This document shows, piece by piece, positions 12,136-32,592 of a DNA stretch of 53,944 nt (its first letter is position 1; every line of letters starts with the position of its first letter). Origin of the DNA: a virus (lineage: Duplodnaviria; Caudoviricetes); the IMG/VR virus record IMGVR_UViG_3300032144_000013, positions 1 to 53,944 of that record. One strand, 5' to 3'. Made by a program: the position numbers and the translations under genes. Under the pieces are notes generated by a model. That model was given only the letters and a program-made list of their open reading frames with translations. It searched no databases and was not told where the DNA came from.

Positions 12136-12139
12136 GTCC

Positions 12140-12183
12140 AAACAAAAACGGCTGGAACCGCTCGCGTTGAGCAGTACCAGCCG
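12140..12183 (-). terminator. Intrinsic-terminator-like hairpin just before the late operon start
   Basis: CGGCTGGTACTGCTC-aacgc-GAGCGGTTCCAGCCG followed by TTTTTGTTT. Confidence 0.55.
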
Positions 12184-20960: not shown

Positions 20961-21632
20961 TCATCGGTACTCCAACGGTTCGCAGCTTCCACACCTCGGC
21001 GCTGTTGTAATTGCCAGCTCCGGATCCCAGCCCTTTCTCAGGCGAGCCCGAATCGTCGCCCGATTGACTCCGGTCTCCTCGGACCACTCCGTGAGACACT
21101 TCGTTGCCCCGAATGCTGTGATCCGAACGGTGTTCCTTCTGTTGACGCTCTGCTCTCCGATTGTCGCCCAGCGGCAATTGTTCGGCTCGTAGTTGCCGTT
21201 CACGTCGATGCGGTCAATTGAGTGCTGTAGAGACGGGCGTGGCCCCATGTCCTCGACAAAGTTCTCGAATGATTCGTCCCACCTTTGGCACACGGTTATT
21301 CCCCGTCCACCGTAGTAGCGGTACGCCTTGCTCTTTGGATCTCGGCACCGCTGGCGCATCGACCGCCACGGCCAATACGACGTCGATGATTCGCGCCTGT
21401 CCTCTTCCGCCTTTGTTCGCTTTCGGTTCCGATCTGCAAGTACCTCTCGCGCCAAGCAGCCGCAACTTTGGGTTTTTCCGTTTCGCAAGTGCGTCGCTAT
21501 GGACATTGCGACTTGACCGCAGTCGCAATCGCACTTCCAAACCACGGACCGTCGTTCTCGATTCTCAGTCGGACCGACGACCACGAGCCTGCCGAACCTC
21601 TGGCCGGTGATGTCCTTTGCGTTCTGGTGCAT
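20961..21632 (-). CDS. HNH-type homing endonuclease-like protein (YGGRGI family)
   Basis: GQRFGRL...WKCDCDCG...YYGGRGITVCQRW...SIDRIDVNGNYEPNNCRWAT. Confidence 0.85.
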   Translation of the reverse strand: MHQNAKDITGQRFGRLVVVGPTENRERRSVVWKCDCDCGQVAMSIATHLRNGKTQSCGCLAREVLADRNRKRTKAEEDRRESSTSYWPWRSMRQRCRDPKSKAYRYYGGRGITVCQRWDESFENFVEDMGPRPSLQHSIDRIDVNGNYEPNNCRWATIGEQSVNRRNTVRITAFGATKCLTEWSEETGVNRATIRARLRKGWDPELAITTAPRCGSCEPLEYR

Positions 21633-22506: not shown

Positions 22507-22806
22507 TCATGGCGACACCTCTGTCAGCTTTCCGTAGATCGCAGCCAGTCCAATCCACCCGTTAATCCCACCGCGATTGTTTCCAATCAGGTATCGCCCA
22601 TTCTTCACCGACTTCACCAAGTGCAGGTAATGGCTTCCCTTCACTGAACAGAGAACAACGTCTCCGCTCTGGATCACCTTTGAAGGTTCCACTGTGCATA
22701 GTTGTCCGCTCTCAACACGACCAGTCATTGACGAACCTTGTGGACGAAACTGCACCGTGTACCCACGAGACAACTGGCTGATGTAATTGGACGCCCATCG
22801 ACTCAT
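22507..22806 (-). CDS. Stand-alone S24/S26 peptidase-like domain
   Basis: RPQGSSM (Ser), GDVVLC, YLHLV. Confidence 0.65.
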   Translation of the reverse strand: MSRWASNYISQLSRGYTVQFRPQGSSMTGRVESGQLCTVEPSKVIQSGDVVLCSVKGSHYLHLVKSVKNGRYLIGNNRGGINGWIGLAAIYGKLTEVSP

Positions 22807-23459
22807 TCCGCCTCCCCCTTCCACGTGAACTGTCCCGTCTCCGGGTGGTAGTACGCCGCGCGCCTCGTCGATAGTCGTTACTCGCATGGCTCACCCCCGT
22901 GTGCATGGTTCCTAGACTGCAACACGAATCGATTGATTCGGTCCTCCAGGTTCGCTGTGATCCGCTCGCTTCTCGCGGCAACATTCGACACTTCGCACAG
23001 CAACTCAACGGCTTGGATGTACTTTTCGTGACCACACGGATGGCACATCAACGTTCCAAGAGTACGTGCCGAGAAAATCAGCGGACCGTTCCCACACTCG
23101 ATGCAGTTCATGCTTGTCACCTCGCCATCCCGTTGAACACACCCGTTGCAAATCGACGCAGATCGCTCAACCCCGAAACTGAGCCGTCGAAATCTGAATC
23201 GTCACCGAATGGCAAACGTCCCTCGCGTGCGTGTTCAGTCGCATCGCGTCCTCCCACACCAGGCCGAGCACCGTCGCCCACTTTTCGCACTCACGCGGCA
23301 CGCAAATTTCATCAGCCAGCGTCGCCATCAACGCCGTTCGAATCGACTCCCGCGCCTTCGCCGCAATCGGGTTCCGCGTCCGCTCCAGCAATGTCACGAA
23401 CATCTCCCAGTCGTGACGCTCCAGGGTCAGGTTGCAGGTGCGTTCTGCTGTTGCTGGCA

Positions 23460-24407
23460 TTACGTCGCTCCGTTGTTGCGGCTGCGAATTCGGAACCGGG
23501 CGATATGCTCGATGCACGAGCTTGACCTGCGTCCCTGTTCCCGCCAGTTTGTTTGCAAGCCCAGCTTCCCCTTGAAAGCCGCCGCCGCCAGCCCATCAAG
23601 CTCGTCGTCACCAAGCGCCCGCACTGCGTCGCACTCAGCCCAGATGTCGTCGCTCCGCGCCACCGGCCGCGTCCGCTTCGGCCAGCCTTCGTCTGCCGGC
23701 TGACCGGGAACCATCGCGTCCAGCTTCATGCCGAGAGCACCAGGGCCATCGAACTCTTCCCGATGCGACCGCCAGTAATCCAGTGCCGCCTCGACCTGTT
23801 CGATTGGAACCCCGCTGTCCCGACAGCGCTCGACTTTGACCCGAGCCGTTGCTAGTCCCATCTTCGAAGCCGCCGCCGCCGCCATAGTCCATGCGTTCGA
23901 CTCCGCGTGCTCGCCGCGTGCGGTGGTGGTGGTGGTGGTGGGGCTTGGCGTGGCTTGACATGACGTGGTGGGGATAGTGCCGTCACTAGTCACGGTGTAA
24001 GTCGCCTCACTAGTCGTCTCTCCAGTGGCGACATAAGTCGGGTCACTAGTCGGGGTGTAAGTCGGGTCACTAGTCTCGGATGCGAATTTCAATCCCGACC
24101 TTTTGAGTTTGCTTCGAACCCAGTTCGGACAATGCTGGTGCCAGTCGTGGACAACTAGGCGATGCGTTTCGTGGGAATCGAGCCACCCGGATACAACCAA
24201 TGCACTAACGAACTCTGATGCGTCTCCCTCCCAGTCGCACCACTTCGCGATCACCCCGTCCGAAAACTTCCCTACATTGCCGCTGATGGCAAACTCAGAG
24301 ACCCCGTCCCATAGAAGCTCCAGATAGCCGATGGCCGTCGGACGCGAGCAATTAAGTCGCGTGCGCAGTTCATCCAGCTTCGGATGTCTCTTTGCCCCCA
24401 TCTTCAT
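23460..24407 (-). CDS. Phage replication initiator-like protein
   Basis: N-terminal HPKL...GYLELLW...GWLD...HDWHQH domain followed by iteron-encoded Thr-rich repeats. Confidence 0.75.
   Translation of the reverse strand: MKMGAKRHPKLDELRTRLNCSRPTAIGYLELLWDGVSEFAISGNVGKFSDGVIAKWCDWEGDASEFVSALVVSGWLDSHETHRLVVHDWHQHCPNWVRSKLKRSGLKFASETSDPTYTPTSDPTYVATGETTSEATYTVTSDGTIPTTSCQATPSPTTTTTTARGEHAESNAWTMAAAAASKMGLATARVKVERCRDSGVPIEQVEAALDYWRSHREEFDGPGALGMKLDAMVPGQPADEGWPKRTRPVARSDDIWAECDAVRALGDDELDGLAAAAFKGKLGLQTNWREQGRRSSSCIEHIARFRIRSRNNGAT
23975..24075. repeat. Four iteron-like direct repeats (core TCACTAGTC), putative replication origin
   Basis: Core at 23983, 24007, 24043 and 24067; extended unit TAAGTCGGGTCACTAGTC. 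Confidence 0.75.
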
Positions 24408-25282
24408 CAGACGCTGAATCCCTGTTCGCTGCTCATGCCCAGGTTCCGCTGGCACATCTCCAGCGCCGGCCGGTCCCACGATGCCGGGTCGCGCAACTTG
24501 TCGTCGGGGATGTCCGTCCACTGACGCAGCATCCCGCGAAACTGCTCTTTGCTTCCCTCGGGGTTCTGCACCGTCCAGAACTTCCACATGGCTTGGATCT
24601 CATCCAGAGTCACCGGCGCTCGCTGTGGCTTACGCTGCGGCTCCGGGTCGGGCATTGCGCCGTCGGCGTCCTCGTCTCCAGTCGTGATGCCGAGCACGGA
24701 CAGCAGGGCGTACCTCCGGCCGTAGCTATTGCGGACGCCCTCGCACTGGATGTTGTTGATGTTTGCCGACTGATACTGCGGCAGAGTCACGCTGGCCGAC
24801 CGGCTGTGCCCATCAACGTGATGCAGGTTGCAGCGGAATGCGCCGGACCCGTCGGTGTCGAACGTGAACGAGAAACCGTTGGCTTTCAGGTGCGGCTTGA
24901 CCACCGCGACAATGTGATTCAGATCCGCGAAGTCGTAGCCCCACACGCCGCCGGTCTTCGATTTGATTTCCGCCGTGCGGTTCTTCGAAACGGGCGGGCA
25001 CGCCGCCTGAAAGTCCTGAAACGCGCGGTTGAACGCCATCTCTGCGTTCTTCTCCATCACCCGCAGTTGCAGGTTGACCAGCTTCTCCATCGTGTCGGCG
25101 TCAACGCCGCGCTCGACGGCCAGGCTGATGACGGAGCCGATGTCAGAACTCTGCGTACTCCGGCTGGGAAGGCTCGGTTGAACCTTCGCCGGCAGTTGCG
25201 TCTCCGCAACCAATTCCGATTCGCATGCACTGGTCGATGTACCAGAGCGGGAGTCCACCTGGTCGAATAAAGCGGCTGTCAT
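24407..25282 (-). CDS. erf: ERF-family single-strand annealing protein
   Basis: AFNRAFQDFQAACPPVSKN...YDFADL...LHHVDGH...SYGRRYALLSVLGITTGDEDADG; start uncertain because it overlaps the exonuclease. Confidence 0.82.
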   Translation of the reverse strand: MTAALFDQVDSRSGTSTSACESELVAETQLPAKVQPSLPSRSTQSSDIGSVISLAVERGVDADTMEKLVNLQLRVMEKNAEMAFNRAFQDFQAACPPVSKNRTAEIKSKTGGVWGYDFADLNHIVAVVKPHLKANGFSFTFDTDGSGAFRCNLHHVDGHSRSASVTLPQYQSANINNIQCEGVRNSYGRRYALLSVLGITTGDEDADGAMPDPEPQRKPQRAPVTLDEIQAMWKFWTVQNPEGSKEQFRGMLRQWTDIPDDKLRDPASWDRPALEMCQRNLGMSSEQGFSV

Positions 25283-26252: not shown

Positions 26253-26528
26253 CTACGCATCCCATTCCTCCAACGGCACCAGCACGTAGGTTTTGCCGCC
26301 CGAGTTCACCTTCAGACCGTCCAGGTCCGTCAGGCGTATGTTGCGGCTCTTGGTGTCTCCGCGTTCAATCAGCCCCTTTGACTCCAGTGCGTTCAGATGG
26401 CAGACAACTCCATTCGGACAACTGACATCGATCAGCGGCATCAACTCGCGGACGGTCGGGCCGACCACCGCCAGGTTCTCGGTGATTGCCGCGAGTACTT
26501 CACTTTGCCGCTGCGTGAGCTGGCTCAC
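26253..26528 (-). CDS. LexA-like N-terminal DNA-binding domain only
   Basis: LTQRQSEVL...GPTVREL...SCPNGVVCHLNALESKGLIER...SRNIRL; no peptidase domain. Confidence 0.8.
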   Translation of the reverse strand: MSQLTQRQSEVLAAITENLAVVGPTVRELMPLIDVSCPNGVVCHLNALESKGLIERGDTKSRNIRLTDLDGLKVNSGGKTYVLVPLEEWDA

Positions 26529-26836
26529 TGGATTTCTCCGTGTAGTTGCCGTCCCCGTCGATGCGCCCGAGCACGGCGTCCAAGTGCTCGCGAATCGCCG
26601 ACACGTCCCCGTCGTGCGTCTGACGGTCGAGCGCACACAGCAGGTCGGCGCACGACTTCAGCTTGCCGACGTCCGACTTCGTGAACCGAATCCGCACTCC
26701 CGCACCCTGCACAAGAATGTTCATGCCGCACCCTTTCAATTGAGCTTGATTCCACGAAACATCGCCAGACACCCCACAGCGACGACGGCAAACGCCAGGC
26801 TCGCGAAGAGCAGGTTTTCGATCACGTGCGCGAGCA

Positions 26837-27380: not shown

Positions 27381-28127
27381 TCATGGCGTCACCTCGCGCC
27401 ACTGCTCCTCCGTCCCGCGCGTGAACTTCTGCTCGATCCTTCGTGGCTTCGGCAGGTCCACGAAGCCGCACCATGTCTTTGTCCAAGTTGTGCCGTCAGA
27501 AGCGACGATGGTCTCTCGGTGCATGTCCGTCGCGACCCACGGCTCCTCCAGCGGGCCGATGTATCGCACGAGGTCTTCTGTGCACGGCCCGCTGGTTGGG
27601 TACCAACCGTCTTCTTTCCACGTTCGACCAGAGCCGTGGACGGTCCCGTTCCACCAGTCGCGAGTTCCAGCGAGACGCGAGTTGACAGTCGCCCGCCTCC
27701 CATCCCGCGTCTCGTACACGCCCGGCCCGTGCTCGCTGATGGAGAACGGCTTGGGAATCGGGCTGGCGATGTAGAAAGGCTCCTCACGCGGGTACTTGGC
27801 GTCGAATTCAACGGCGGTCAAACCAACGTGCTCCGGTGCATCAAAGCAAAGCCACCCGCCTCGATTTCCGATGATCTTGTCCTCCCTGCGGTACTTATGG
27901 GTCTCTCTGTCGGCCAACTGAAAGCCTTCCGGTGGAGTCGGCGGGTCGGGAGGCTTTGGACCCTTGATGTCCGCGTAGTACGGCGAATAGCCGTCCTCAC
28001 ACTCCCACACACCTCCTGCGCCATCCGAGTAGAACCCGAACGCCCACCCGCCTTCGATGTGAACGACTCGGCACGGAAGGCCGTTCGTGTCCACGTACTC
28101 ACCGAGGCTCGGAATTATGTTGCTCAT
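27381..28127 (-). CDS. Hypothetical protein
   Basis: 248 aa, ATGA-coupled to csrA; PGVYETRDGRRA motif. Confidence 0.6.
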   Translation of the reverse strand: MSNIIPSLGEYVDTNGLPCRVVHIEGGWAFGFYSDGAGGVWECEDGYSPYYADIKGPKPPDPPTPPEGFQLADRETHKYRREDKIIGNRGGWLCFDAPEHVGLTAVEFDAKYPREEPFYIASPIPKPFSISEHGPGVYETRDGRRATVNSRLAGTRDWWNGTVHGSGRTWKEDGWYPTSGPCTEDLVRYIGPLEEPWVATDMHRETIVASDGTTWTKTWCGFVDLPKPRRIEQKFTRGTEEQWREVTP

Positions 28128-28321
28128 GCTCGCGCCTCCCCTCCCAAATCGAATTCGTCCGGCTCGTCGTCACGCGGAATCAACTCGCTCCGCACGATGT
28201 TCACGCTGCGGTCGGCTTCCACGCCGACACGCACGTATCCGTCCTTCGATTTCAGAATCGTGAACCGCGCCGGTCCATCGACTTCGATTGACGTTCCCAC
28301 TGTGCGTCCAAGACAAAGCAT
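28124..28321 (-). CDS. csrA: CsrA/RsmA-family RNA-binding regulator
   Basis: MLCLGRTVGTSIEVDGPARFTILKSKDGYVRVGVEADRSVNIVRSEL matches the CsrA pattern (ML.L.R..GE.I...VR.G..AP..V.I.R.E), with the Arg44-equivalent retained; GGAGG RBS. Confidence 0.85.
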   Translation of the reverse strand: MLCLGRTVGTSIEVDGPARFTILKSKDGYVRVGVEADRSVNIVRSELIPRDDEPDEFDLGGEARA

Positions 28322-28337
28322 CGTTTCCTCCCTGGTT

Positions 28338-28392
28338 AAAAAACCCGGCGCTACGGACATCCGTTTCTGTGCGTCCATGTTGCCGCGCCGGG
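28338..28392 (-). terminator. Terminator/attenuator hairpin in the csrA leader containing two ANGGA motifs
   Basis: CCCGGCGC...AUGGA...ACGGA...GCGCCGGG followed by UUUUUU. Confidence 0.65.
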
Positions 28393-28403
28393 CTGCTCCT
28401 ACG

Positions 28404-28607
28404 TCAGCCGACAATCGTTGCTTCCTGAATGCACACCCTCAGTTCACCGCGAGACGCCCCGTAGTTGCGGGACACGTGGTACACCTTGCCATCAACTCGC
28501 GCAGTGACGCTGCCCTGCATCCTCAGCATCAATCGCTCCTCCACGTCCATTAGCTGCGCCCGGAGTGCGACGTGCTTGCCGACCAGATCCAAAAATTCCG
28601 TGTCCAT
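28404..28607 (-). CDS. Hypothetical protein
   Basis: GGGGAG RBS, MDTEFLDLVGKH. Confidence 0.55.
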   Translation of the reverse strand: MDTEFLDLVGKHVALRAQLMDVEERLMLRMQGSVTARVDGKVYHVSRNYGASRGELRVCIQEATIVG

Positions 28608-29112
28608 TCGTATCTCCCCTGTGACAGTCCGCCCGACGCCCTTTTCTTTGAACGCATCCCACCCTGCGGCGCGCCGGTCGAATTCGCTCGACTCCTCGTG
28701 CCCATATGCGTCCGTGTTGCCGCGCATGTTGCGAACTCCGATGTTCAGAAACGCGATGGATGCCGATTCGAGCGGTGTCACTTCTTGTTGCTTCCCGGAC
28801 AACGGTAGCCTCCGCTCTGGTAGCGCTGCCGAACCTTCGCGTCTGTGATTCCTGAGTTCATCATCGTTGCCCACGACGCAACTCGGATTCGTCGGCGCTT
28901 GTCGGATTTCTTGGCGTCCAAGTGCATCATCCCGTCCCCCTCGTTGTTGAAACCGGCCGCCGTCTCCCCACCTTGACGCGCTACTGACAACCCGTGCACG
29001 AGTCGCAGTTGTCGCCTTCGTGGAACGTCAGCCGGGGTTGTTGTTCCAAAGTGCCCGGTTAGCCAGTGCCGAGTACCGGGCGTCCTCGGTCTACGTCTCT
29101 CAACGCTGGCAG

Positions 29113-29184
29113 TGCCCACGGCAGGATTCGAACCTGCAATCTCCGGCGTTCCTTCCGGTGGCTATGCCATTTGCCTACGTGGGT
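29113..29184 (-). ncRNA. tRNA-like RNA with an aberrant anticodon arm (pseudo-tRNA)
   Basis: ACCCACG/CGTGGGC acceptor, GGC/GCC D-stem with TGG, perfect T-arm GCAGG-TTCGAAT-CCTGC; anticodon arm CCGG-AAGGAACG-CCGG has no U33 and no assignable anticodon. Confidence 0.75.
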
Positions 29185-29537: not shown

Positions 29538-29823
29538 CACTCGCTCCTTGTGCTTGTCCCCTAACGCAATCTCAAATCCGCGACGGGCGAGCAGTCCGGC
29601 CAATCAGACCGCTCTAGCCCGACGCGGACGTAGGCGCGCGCACCGCGACCGAATCCGTGACCACGGGTGAATCCATGCAGCGCAATGCAAGTCCGTGCGT
29701 GCATCGTTTCGTCCGTGGAAGTCAGCAGCAGCCGACGCGGGAGAAGTCCCGAGAAGGCGCAGTCCGTCACGCAATGAAGTCCGTCGCAGCGCCGCAAAAC
29801 CGTGCGGTGCTCAGTCAGTCCGT
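29538..29823 (-). ncRNA. Putative CsrB/RsmZ-like RNA or leader with an ANGGA array
   Basis: Seven ANGGA motifs at 29654, 29672, 29692, 29712, 29763, 29780 and 29819 plus further GGA, in an intergenic gap. Confidence 0.65.
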
Positions 29824-30591
29824 CTACAGCAGTCCTAGATCTCGGTTCGTGCAAGCGTGCTCGCCGAACAACTCGATTGCCTTCTTGTCGTATGCTCGCG
29901 CCGCTTCAACCTCCGTCGCGAACCGGCCCACGTGCACCTGCTTCCGGTCAACAGTGATCGTCACCTTGAACGGTCGTGGACCGCGCTTTTCGCGGTACAC
30001 GCCCTTGAACGGGGATGACGCACCCCCTTCACGAATAACCTTCGCCGCGTTCCTGCCGTTTTCTCCCGACGTGACAACCCGAAGATTCTGTCTGCGGTTG
30101 TTCAGCCTGTTCCTGTCGCGGTGGTCGGTTTCCATGCCAGTTGGAGTTTTTGCGATTAGTCGGTGCATCGCGCCAGCGGATGCAGACCATGCGTACCCAG
30201 TCGGCGACAAGTACCACGAATGCTCCGCAACCAGGGGAGCGTCCTCGGCGTCGCACAGCGCGCATTCAGACGTGTTTCCGAGAGGAACCTTCGCAATGCC
30301 GTTCACGATGACTACCGCCGTCGTGTTCTTGCGAATCAGGTTGCATCTCCGGCAGTCGAGAGGATTGCCGTTTAGGTGTCTCACGTGCTCGCCCTTGCTG
30401 GTTTCGAGAATGAAACCGGGGAGCCGCGCGTACCCGCCCTTCCTGTCCGACGCCGATGTCTGAACGAATCTTTTTCCGTTCGCCGACGTTGCCACCCGCC
30501 AACGCATGCTCGACACTGACGGCAGATCGACAGCATCGACGATGATTTTCTCACCGCCAATTGCGGTGACTTCGGCAACCGCCTGTTGCAT
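29824..30591 (-). CDS. HNH-AP2 domain endonuclease
   Basis: Two HNH-like units (HLNGNPLDCRRCNL; DHRDRNRLNNRRQNLR) and C-terminal AP2 (FKGV...VGRFATEVEAARAYDKKA..LFGEHACTN). Confidence 0.85.
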   Translation of the reverse strand: MQQAVAEVTAIGGEKIIVDAVDLPSVSSMRWRVATSANGKRFVQTSASDRKGGYARLPGFILETSKGEHVRHLNGNPLDCRRCNLIRKNTTAVVIVNGIAKVPLGNTSECALCDAEDAPLVAEHSWYLSPTGYAWSASAGAMHRLIAKTPTGMETDHRDRNRLNNRRQNLRVVTSGENGRNAAKVIREGGASSPFKGVYREKRGPRPFKVTITVDRKQVHVGRFATEVEAARAYDKKAIELFGEHACTNRDLGLL

Positions 30592-30734
30592 GGAACGTCT
30601 CCGTCGCACATCCGACGGGTCGCTCAAGAATGAGCAAAGCGTCGGCGATCTCCTGAGTTCGTCATCGGGTCTCACGCCGATTCGGAACTCACCAAAAGTC
30701 AAAGCCGCGTATCAGGCCAGCCCCGACACGCGGC

Positions 30735-31419: not shown

Positions 31420-31647
31420 GTCCTTACCGTGTAAGAGTTTACGGCGTTGAGTGAGGCGCGCTAACCCTGAGTGGAGGCGCAAAGGTGGATGACTGTTGCT
31501 GCTGCGTAGGCGGTAACGGGTGCTGCGTCGGTATTTTTCCGATGCGCCGTATCGGGTGGATTTCTTCGGCACTGGAGGCTCGCAAATGCGATTTAACAAA
31601 TGTCTCAATCTCACCTCGCTGCACGCCGGGCCACATCGGGCGTTCGC

Positions 31648-32592
31648 ATGCAAGATGCCTTCGACGGCACAGCCGCGCGCCGTCTCAATGCGCGGACCTG
31701 TTTCGACACGCTCTACAAGCTGTGGGCACCAGACCTGGCCCCACGCACGGAGCGCCGCTACAGGCATGAGCTGAACCGATGGGAAAAGCTCACCAACGAT
31801 CCGCCGTTGTCCGAGATTTCGACAACGCTCTATCAGCAGTTCCGGGCATCCTCTTCCCAGCTCGGACACGCTGCCGGCACAACCGAATCGACCCTGAGAT
31901 TCATCCGGCAACTGATGCGCTGTGCCCTCGCGCACGGGGCCATCAACGTCATCCCCGATCGGGGCCGCGCCCGGCGCATTGACGCTCCACAGCCGCACCC
32001 GCCGTCGATCGACGAACTCGACCGAATGTTCCGGGTCTGCGAGGTGGCGCGCTGGCCGCGACTCCACGTTCCCACGAAAATATTCTGGCGAAGCTGGATG
32101 GCCGTGGCACTATGGACGGCACTGCGCCGCGAGGACATTTTCTGGCGGTTGGCACTGGAGCACATCGACTTCAAGGAAAGCCGCATCCTGTTCCGGGCGC
32201 ACAAGAGCAGCGTCCCGCATACGTTCCCCTTGAACGAGATCGTCACCCGCCACATTCGGGCAATGGTCCCCACATTCTCCCACAACACCCGCCGCGTGCT
32301 GTTCAACCCGTCGCGAAGTCCGCACCTGATTCAGCGCGAGCTTGACCGGATGGCAGACGCTGCTGAAGTGCGCAGGATCACCCCGCAGAACTTCCGGCAG
32401 GCGGGAATCAATATGTGGACGATTGCCGATCCCAGGGCCGGAGAAGTCATCCACGGCGTCGGAATCCCCCGCGTCCTGAGCCACTACCTCGACCGGCTCC
32501 AGATTTTGAAGAACGCCGCCGACAACGTGATTGTCCCCGCGTCAATGACGGAGTTTGGCTCTGGTCGCCGGCAGGGGACGCTGTTCGATTGA
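31648..32592 (+). CDS. int: Tyrosine recombinase/integrase
   Basis: TALRREDI (R), HKS (K), PQNFRQ (HxxR variant), IHG, SHY (Tyr); N-terminal core-binding-like helices; start could be 31600. Confidence 0.85.
   Translation: MQDAFDGTAARRLNARTCFDTLYKLWAPDLAPRTERRYRHELNRWEKLTNDPPLSEISTTLYQQFRASSSQLGHAAGTTESTLRFIRQLMRCALAHGAINVIPDRGRARRIDAPQPHPPSIDELDRMFRVCEVARWPRLHVPTKIFWRSWMAVALWTALRREDIFWRLALEHIDFKESRILFRAHKSSVPHTFPLNEIVTRHIRAMVPTFSHNTRRVLFNPSRSPHLIQRELDRMADAAEVRRITPQNFRQAGINMWTIADPRAGEVIHGVGIPRVLSHYLDRLQILKNAADNVIVPASMTEFGSGRRQGTLFD

Follow-up and report, generated by a model that had tools for sequence, protein, structure and literature searches.

How might a phage control its own copy of csrA? 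The question arises in the virus record IMGVR_UViG_3300032144_000013 (53,944 bases; CheckV completeness 100%), which was analysed at its full length and is called the window here. It belongs to a temperate siphovirus-like phage of soil metagenome origin, with a weak lead towards Planctomycetota as host, and nearly all of its genes are co-directional on the minus strand. The locus is a compact case in which a terminator-like hairpin, a duplicated 19-nt site and, farther upstream, an array of GGAYU motifs all lie beside the regulator gene. A survey places csrA in ~1% of sequenced phages (30 of 2517) and calls for loss-of-function experiments (PMC7366521); the literature searched here held no study of how a phage csrA is controlled or of what it controls. 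The reading that we favour, tentatively and at somewhat less than an even chance, is that an intrinsic terminator serves as an attenuator in front of csrA in the early operon, while CsrA-type sites would provide feedback at the level of translation to csrA and to the preceding gene, orf107.

A terminator-like hairpin between orf107 and csrA

The identification of csrA (28124..28321, minus strand; 65 amino acids plus stop) in an earlier note on this DNA is borne out by a match to PF02599 of 40.7 bits against a cut-off of 27, which covers residues 1–49 on a profile of 53 positions, and by assignment to PHROG 9500 (‘CsrA-like regulator’). The protein aligns without gaps to residues 1–50 of E. coli CsrA (1y00); L2, L4, R6, V40, R44 and E46 are identical, and the substitutions include V42 to I, I47 to L and R7 to T. 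The RNA-binding residues of E. coli CsrA, which from mutational studies we take to be L2, L4, R6, V40, V42, R44 and I47, are kept in the phage protein, V42 and I47 as I and L, and binding of GGA sites by it is therefore plausible.

Upstream of the gene, the note had described a terminator-like hairpin followed by U6 about 17 nt before the csrA start, with the second copy of the 19-nt repeat as its 5′ part and two ANGGA sites inside. Reading of the minus strand gives the same arrangement. The 49-nt hairpin (28344..28392, minus strand; predicted fold −23.8 to −24.4 kcal/mol) consists of an 8-bp GC basal stem (CCCGGCGC/GCGCCGGG), an inner stem (GGACG/UGUCC) and an apical loop (CACAGAAACGGA), and the basal stem lies directly next to the U6 tract (28338..28343, minus strand), which is immediately 3′ of the hairpin on the transcribed strand. 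Copy 2 of the repeat supplies the last 4 nt of the basal 5′ arm together with the 5′ strand of the inner stem. The two interior sites are AUGGA (GGA at 28376–28374) and ACGGA (GGA at 28362–28360), and 16 nt (AACCAGGGAGGAAACG) separate U6 from the csrA ATG (28321). The stop codon of orf107 ends 11 nt before the terminator stem, in a gap of 82 nt between orf107 and csrA.

Hairpin and U-tract together fold at −21.8 kcal/mol (z = −2.5), a stability equalled in two of 200 shuffles; the hairpin is thus more stable than its composition predicts and is non-random, whereas the whole 121-nt leader is not unusually stable (z = −0.54). A generic terminator scan found eight sites against 7.6 expected and caught merely a fragment of the csrA hairpin. 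In a second, permissive scan of both strands for terminator-like sites, the convincing canonical ones on the coding strand were the csrA hairpin and two others, placed at 30734–30704 and 12182–12143: an upstream hairpin with a T-rich tail (30694..30734, minus strand), between the excisionase-like (xis-like) gene and the gene of an HNH-AP2 endonuclease, and a downstream hairpin (12139..12182, minus strand) of 35 nt and −24.8 kcal/mol, followed by TTTTTGTTTG. Neither contains GGA, and the csrA hairpin is the sole GGA-bearing member of the three. The best reading of the hairpin and U6 is that of an intrinsic (Rho-independent) terminator.

Scans of the open reading frames (ORFs) of the window with PHROG and Pfam profiles place this locus in the early operon of the phage. 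On the minus strand past the integrase gene, the order is the xis-like gene, the HNH-AP2 endonuclease gene, orf128, a tRNA-like gene, two small ORFs and csrA; 3′ of csrA follow orf248 and the genes of a LexA-type DNA-binding protein, an exonuclease VIII-like protein, Erf and a replication initiator. A sigma-70 promoter scan gave no minus-strand site near the locus. Since a promoter does not fit in before csrA, transcription of this gene and of the recombination and replication genes behind it could come only from read-through past the terminator, which would thus work as an attenuator.

What gates such read-through could also be a processive phage antitermination system (N-, Q- or put-like) acting at all three terminators, with CsrA playing no part in transcription. 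Three terminator-like sites do break up this one co-directional operon, and lambdoid early operons have the same layout of terminators interrupting the operon; in lambda, as here, they stand ahead of the recombination and replication genes. However, the nut/N-like logic put forward in the earlier note found no counterpart: no N-like factor, nor any other antiterminator family, was recognized among the 69 ORFs scanned with PHROGs (16 + 53), although no nut box search was made, and Rfam at both thresholds (to E ≤ 10) gave no RNA in the window beyond two tRNAs. CsrA itself is not known to bind or modify RNA polymerase. We consider processive antitermination improbable as the gate of this operon; it would in any case be compatible with translational control by CsrA, and competes with it only over what governs read-through.

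The 19-nt repeat and candidate CsrA sites

The 19-mer occurs twice, with 18 of 19 positions identical and the sole difference at the N of ANGGA, as had been noted before and as direct reading of the minus strand confirms. The two copies lie 337 nt apart in the same orientation. Copy 1 (GCGCGGCAACACGGACGCA; 28707..28725, minus strand) lies on the start codon of orf107 (28404..28727, minus strand; ATG at 28727–28725), an ORF of no family whose N-terminal part has coding-type GC periodicity (0.65/0.53/0.72), and copy 2 (GCGCGGCAACATGGACGCA; 28370..28388, minus strand) lies in the 5′ strand of the terminator hairpin. Copy 1 starts at the G of the ATG and reads through codons 1–7 (M-RGNTDA), and copy 2 starts 15 nt past the stop codon, so that the direct repeats bracket exactly one gene. 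Pairs of 19-mers with at most one mismatch and at most 500 nt apart number two in the whole window (shuffle mean 0.02 per genome over 100 dinucleotide shuffles), the other being an iteron-like pair inside the replication gene; the repeat is non-random. With up to three mismatches allowed on either strand, the window holds just the two copies and therefore no antisense partner. The proposal to look for the 19-mer elsewhere yielded no exact match in viral contigs.

Within the 19-mer, a small hairpin of its own can be drawn, GCG[GCAACAYGGA]CGC, and both copies contain ACA-N-GGA. At copy 1 the predicted local hairpin, CAUG.GCG[GCAACACGGA]CGC.UAUG (−7.8 kcal/mol), would hold the AUG in its stem and GGA in a 10-nt loop. 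The consensus reported from in vitro selection (SELEX) for CsrA is RUACARGGAUGU, in which ACA and GGA are invariant and GGA lies mostly in a hairpin loop (PMC7652899). There is also a third, partial copy (TGGACGCACAG; 28300..28310, minus strand), an exact 11-mer match to 28377–28367 in the hairpin, which spans csrA codons 4–8 and puts GGA at +13 to +15, the Gly5 codon.

The bracketing of exactly orf107 is what an inserted or deletable cassette, or a short-homology joint in a mosaic phage, would leave, and the main rival to our reading takes the hairpin for a plain terminator and the 19-mer pair for a scar of recombination or duplication in which GGA is incidental. Both copies encode RGN(T/M)DA in the frame of the following ORF; their 19 nt of identity exceed what a CsrA site requires; and the canonical CsrA patterns are not enriched beyond chance. 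The putative cassette itself has no obvious kin: orf107, like orf248 and orf128, has no relatives in viral contigs, and a wider protein search with orf107 returned one match only, to a 100%-identical protein. A scar leaves unexplained, however, the exact 11-mer in csrA codons 4–8, the placement of the single difference at the free N of ANGGA, and the GGAYU array upstream. We judge it unlikely on balance, if a serious contender; should CsrA not bind these sites, the locus would reduce to an ordinary intercistronic terminator and a recombination scar.

For the attenuator reading with translational feedback speaks the arrangement of GGA around the csrA start. The Shine-Dalgarno sequence (AGGGAGGA; 28326..28333, minus strand) forms with the preceding CC the stretch CCAGGGAGGA, a CANGGANG-type motif, and the GGA sites of the leader lie at −55 and −41 (both in the hairpin), at −10/−7 (Shine-Dalgarno) and at +13 (codon 5). 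Their spacings of 14, 31–34 and 20–23 nt would suit CsrA dimers, since these are reported to bridge sites 10–63 nt apart (PMC7652899). Among the 100-nt windows of the genome, that of the csrA leader ranks first for ANGGANG.

The codon-5 site has parallels elsewhere: among the 11 distinct csrA loci that have Gly5, its codon is GGA in eight (the window, L006, L007, L010, L011, L019, L020 and L021), compared with a background GGA share of 0.06–0.23 where measurable. This bias could instead reflect selection for weak structure near the start codon.

On the favoured reading, CsrA, of the phage or of the host, would bind the leader GGA sites and repress csrA translation. Copy 1 has the same ACAYGGACGCA in a predicted small hairpin loop at the orf107 start, so that orf107 would be subject to this control as well. 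With fewer ribosomes translating orf107, the terminator, 11 nt past its stop, would be free to form, and csrA transcription would be lowered indirectly; orf107 repression at copy 1, by thinning ribosomes and so increasing termination, is a possible route. Of the mechanisms known for CsrA, translational autorepression and such an indirect effect by way of upstream ORF translation suit the locus best. What the analysis establishes are the sequences, the predicted folds, the gene family and the repeat statistics; binding by CsrA and its consequences for translation and termination are inferred.

Precedents exist for the translational part. In E. coli, CsrA binds four sites in the leader of its own mRNA, including one that covers the Shine-Dalgarno sequence, and so represses csrA translation (Yakhnin et al. 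2011, cited in PMC7652899). The phage leader is similar in having several GGA sites ahead of its own gene, one on the Shine-Dalgarno sequence, at spacings that a dimer could bridge, but it differs in lying between two cistrons, ahead of a phage-borne gene, in having an intrinsic terminator but no promoter, and in that its sites are predicted ones. In Legionella, the canonical CsrA targets the transcript of a paralogue, csrR, which it binds at the Shine-Dalgarno sequence and in the first codons (PMC4471563); like phage csrA, csrR is thus a csrA-family gene with GGA at the Shine-Dalgarno sequence and an early coding site, and by analogy the likeness suggests that a resident CsrA may control a secondary one. 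Unlike the phage leader, that of csrR has no terminator, and its coding site lies in codons 1–2 rather than at codon 5.

The earlier note had gone further and proposed CsrA-controlled attenuation or antitermination. The anatomy is as it described, whereas the part in which CsrA governs termination is unsupported. With both interior sites constrained to be unpaired, as a mimic of bound CsrA, the hairpin weakens from −24.4 to −17.4 kcal/mol but the 8-bp GC basal stem persists; the part that determines the fold lies outside the candidate sites. These folding models therefore speak against direct antitermination by CsrA. The stem forms with a probability of 0.9–1.0 in three of the four sequence contexts folded and 0.04 in one (orf107 start to U-tract), where a competing fold is better by 2.7 kcal/mol. 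We do not regard this fold, which needs pairings ~280 nt apart within a translated ORF, as an antiterminator, and the four contexts gave no robust fold that would exclude the terminator.

Clamp-like stabilization of the hairpin by CsrA may be a second route to direct control of the terminator through its two GGA sites, in the sense of negative feedback. In favour of direct control by either route, two ANGGA sites 14 nt apart, within bridging range, occupy the only GGA-bearing terminator, and three Bacillales csrA loci carry terminator-like hairpins with AGGAGG loops ~43 nt before csrA. CsrA also alters elongation at pgaA by remodelling a leader hairpin, though via Rho (PMC4347634, PMC7652899): there it promotes Rho-dependent termination (PMC4052769, PMC7652899). 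The pgaA leader resembles the phage leader in having CsrA-type sites inside a hairpin, which in pgaA affect elongation, but its termination depends on Rho through exposed rut sites, whereas the phage signal is a hairpin with a U-tract. In the literature searched, pgaA was the sole case of a CsrA effect on elongation, and none was found of CsrA acting on an intrinsic terminator. In the TRAP/trp, PyrR and BglG/SacY-RAT systems, an RNA-binding protein at a leader terminator decides read-through (PMC4347634). Candidate protein sites at a leader terminator ahead of downstream genes are shared with the phage; in the TRAP, PyrR and BglG systems, however, terminator and antiterminator folds exclude one another and include the binding site, and no robust pair of this kind was found for the phage leader in the contexts folded. 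Overall, we give direct control of the terminator little credence.

The GGAYU array and other csrA loci

About 1.3 kb upstream of the csrA locus, the 287-nt non-coding gap from the HNH-AP2 stop (29824) to the orf128 ATG (29537) holds ten GGAYU motifs and one GGACG (29575..29835, minus strand), seven of which read A(C/U)GGA(C/U) and fall within 166 nt of the gap. The transcribed strand carries all ten GGAYU motifs, and the opposite strand is free of them. Ten in 300 nt compare with four in the second-best window of the genome, and none of 200 shuffles reaches ten (maximum 6); the signal also holds when 24 GGA+2 patterns are searched (score 8.1; highest score among 40 shuffles, 5.3). ACGGAC, present five times, is the top 6-mer cluster of the genome. 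The gap has no coding periodicity and its ORFs match no family; since the motif occurs in all three frames of the longest gap ORF, it is not a peptide repeat.

To judge from its sequence, the array looks like a multi-site CsrA-binding stretch, and on the favoured reading it would be a further such stretch on the same transcript. With 10–11 GGA in ~260 nt of one non-coding strand it resembles the sponge RNAs CsrB, CsrC, RsmY and RsmZ, and the GGA density of CsrC or RsmY is similar. Unlike the sponges, it has no Rfam match (E ≤ 10) and no flanking promoter or terminator of its own in the scans, lies inside an operon transcript, and has its motifs only about half unpaired (predicted GGA accessibility ~0.5).

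The array and the 19-mers might instead be DNA sites of a phage DNA-binding protein, whether operators or partition- or iteron-like elements. The 19-mers are direct, same-oriented repeats, four of the array sites are spaced 20, 20 and 18 bp apart, a LexA-type DNA-binding protein and an AP2-domain protein are encoded nearby, and true iteron-like repeats exist elsewhere in the genome (23983–24080). Against this stand a conserved core of merely ~7–9 nt that matches the GGA type of CsrA sites, array spacing that is irregular overall (14, 39, 17, 16, 35, 20, 20, 18, 59 and 18 nt), and the embedding of copy 2 in an RNA hairpin with a U-tract; we hold this explanation to be very unlikely.

A wider version of the Csr interpretation joins all of these elements into a self-contained phage circuit, in which csrA, a sponge-like array of ~11 GGA embedded in the operon, and an attenuator set by CsrA through copy 1 (orf107 translation), a clamped copy 2 or both would decide transcription into csrA and the recombination and replication genes. 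Though improbable in this full form, it would, if true, connect CsrA with an intrinsic terminator for the first time and provide the first CsrA decoy RNA carried by a phage, of which the literature searched held no example. If CsrA binds these sites, the locus would show by what means a phage adjusts the amount of a global RNA regulator of host type, and intrinsic termination might join the known mechanisms of CsrA.

Profile-based scans gave 17 viral, four metagenomic and five genomic csrA loci. The closest relative of the phage CsrA is 69% identical and encoded on a 3.4-kb contig; the protein had no match at 1e-3 in an annotated phage collection, and a scan of genome contigs gave distant bacterial csrA loci only. 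The same layout is present in one of these loci, a provirus (L002), whose CsrA is 41–47% identical and which shares no other gene with the window within 3 kb of csrA. As in the window, an upstream stop codon is followed by a GC hairpin (81 nt, −47 kcal/mol), U6AA, a GGA-bearing Shine-Dalgarno sequence and csrA. Homology of the two leaders is not demonstrable by sequence, and the likeness is one of architecture only. A degenerate pattern built from features shared by the window and L002 found L002 again together with four other loci, which were rejected as chance hits because all four carry one identical coding sequence unrelated to csrA.

Several of these results weigh against the attenuator reading with CsrA feedback. 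The local alignment of the L002 leader has P ~0.03 and is outscored by one control leader, and the loop GGA of the window is GAA in L002; a hairpin with a U-run within 60 nt of csrA occurs in just four of 25 upstream regions (the window, L002 and two Bacillales). That the hairpin terminates transcription in the host of this phage is itself an assumption. For consensus patterns fixed in advance, the csrA region is the top window of the genome yet not significantly clustered relative to shuffles: three ACANGGA in 400 nt are reached in 17% of 300 shuffles and CANGGANG in 41%, and two of the three consensus instances come from the repeat itself. Bare GGA is enriched nowhere in the window. Of the two hairpin sites, the GGA at −55 is predicted to be paired (unpaired probability 0.01), and that at −41 is mostly looped (0.65). 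The excess of 19 nt over the length of a CsrA site also counts here. As for the array, its motif was defined after being seen, a motif-agnostic 6-mer test is moderate (five ACGGAC in two of 100 shuffles for a 150-nt window and in 12 of 100 for 200 nt), and neither of the two other csrA phage records that were examined in full has such an array.

Further observations on csrA loci and the phage genome

Clusters of ANGGA near csrA reach P ≤ 0.01 in two of 21 loci, L007, where the cluster spans the csrA start, and L021. The latter has seven ANGGA in 200 nt (1856–2055; 0 of 100 shuffles), within an excisionase-like ORF 450–650 nt upstream of csrA.

In three bacterial loci (L026, L027 and L028, from Paenibacillaceae, Paenibacillus and Domibacillus), a promoter-like site, TAAA-N15-G(C/T)CGATAT, lies at 2200–2500 between two csrA paralogues, upstream of flagellin. 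Downstream of this site come two long terminator-like hairpins, both with an AGGAGG apical loop and a U-run, the second ending ~43 nt before csrA. This leader shares the motif (A/U)GGACGAG with the stretch before the flagellin gene. The leader has no Rfam match, and compensatory change affects only one of the 99 predicted pairs among the three sequences.

Same-strand tRNA genes lie 90–1100 nt upstream of phage csrA in three of 23 loci, as in the window: L003 (1882–1960, Asp), L010 (2335–2411, Asp) and L021 (2134–2205, Met). Phage csrA genes may, by this arrangement, often lie near the attachment end of temperate phages. The tRNA-like gene of the window (29112..29184, minus strand; Rfam tRNA, 46 bits) has an anticodon arm one nt short, with a 4-bp stem (CCGG/CCGG) and an 8-nt loop (AAGGAACG) that displays an AGGA motif; ARAGORN calls a 4-base anticodon, ‘ggaa’, there is an A:C mismatch at 1:72, and CCA is encoded. 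The gene may represent a defective tRNA, one of the frameshift type or a further candidate CsrA site.

Elsewhere in the genome, the terminase, portal, protease, major head protein and tail genes occupy 53.7–33.8 kb, and the integrase gene (31600–32592, plus strand) adjoins tRNA-Val. A LexA-type DNA-binding domain (26253–26636, minus strand) and an S24 peptidase domain (22507–22887, minus strand) are encoded by separate ORFs 3.4 kb apart, and not as one repressor. Four HNH endonuclease genes, all on the minus strand (1046–1369, 1903–2769, 20961–21632 and 29824–30702), include two members of PHROG 374 and one with a fused AP2 domain. Inside the replication-initiator gene (23460–24587), iteron-like repeats at 23983–24080 on both strands comprise two copies of TAAGTCGGGTCACTAGTC, 24 nt apart, and four of TCACTAGTC in a stretch of 130 nt; this region is probably the phage origin.

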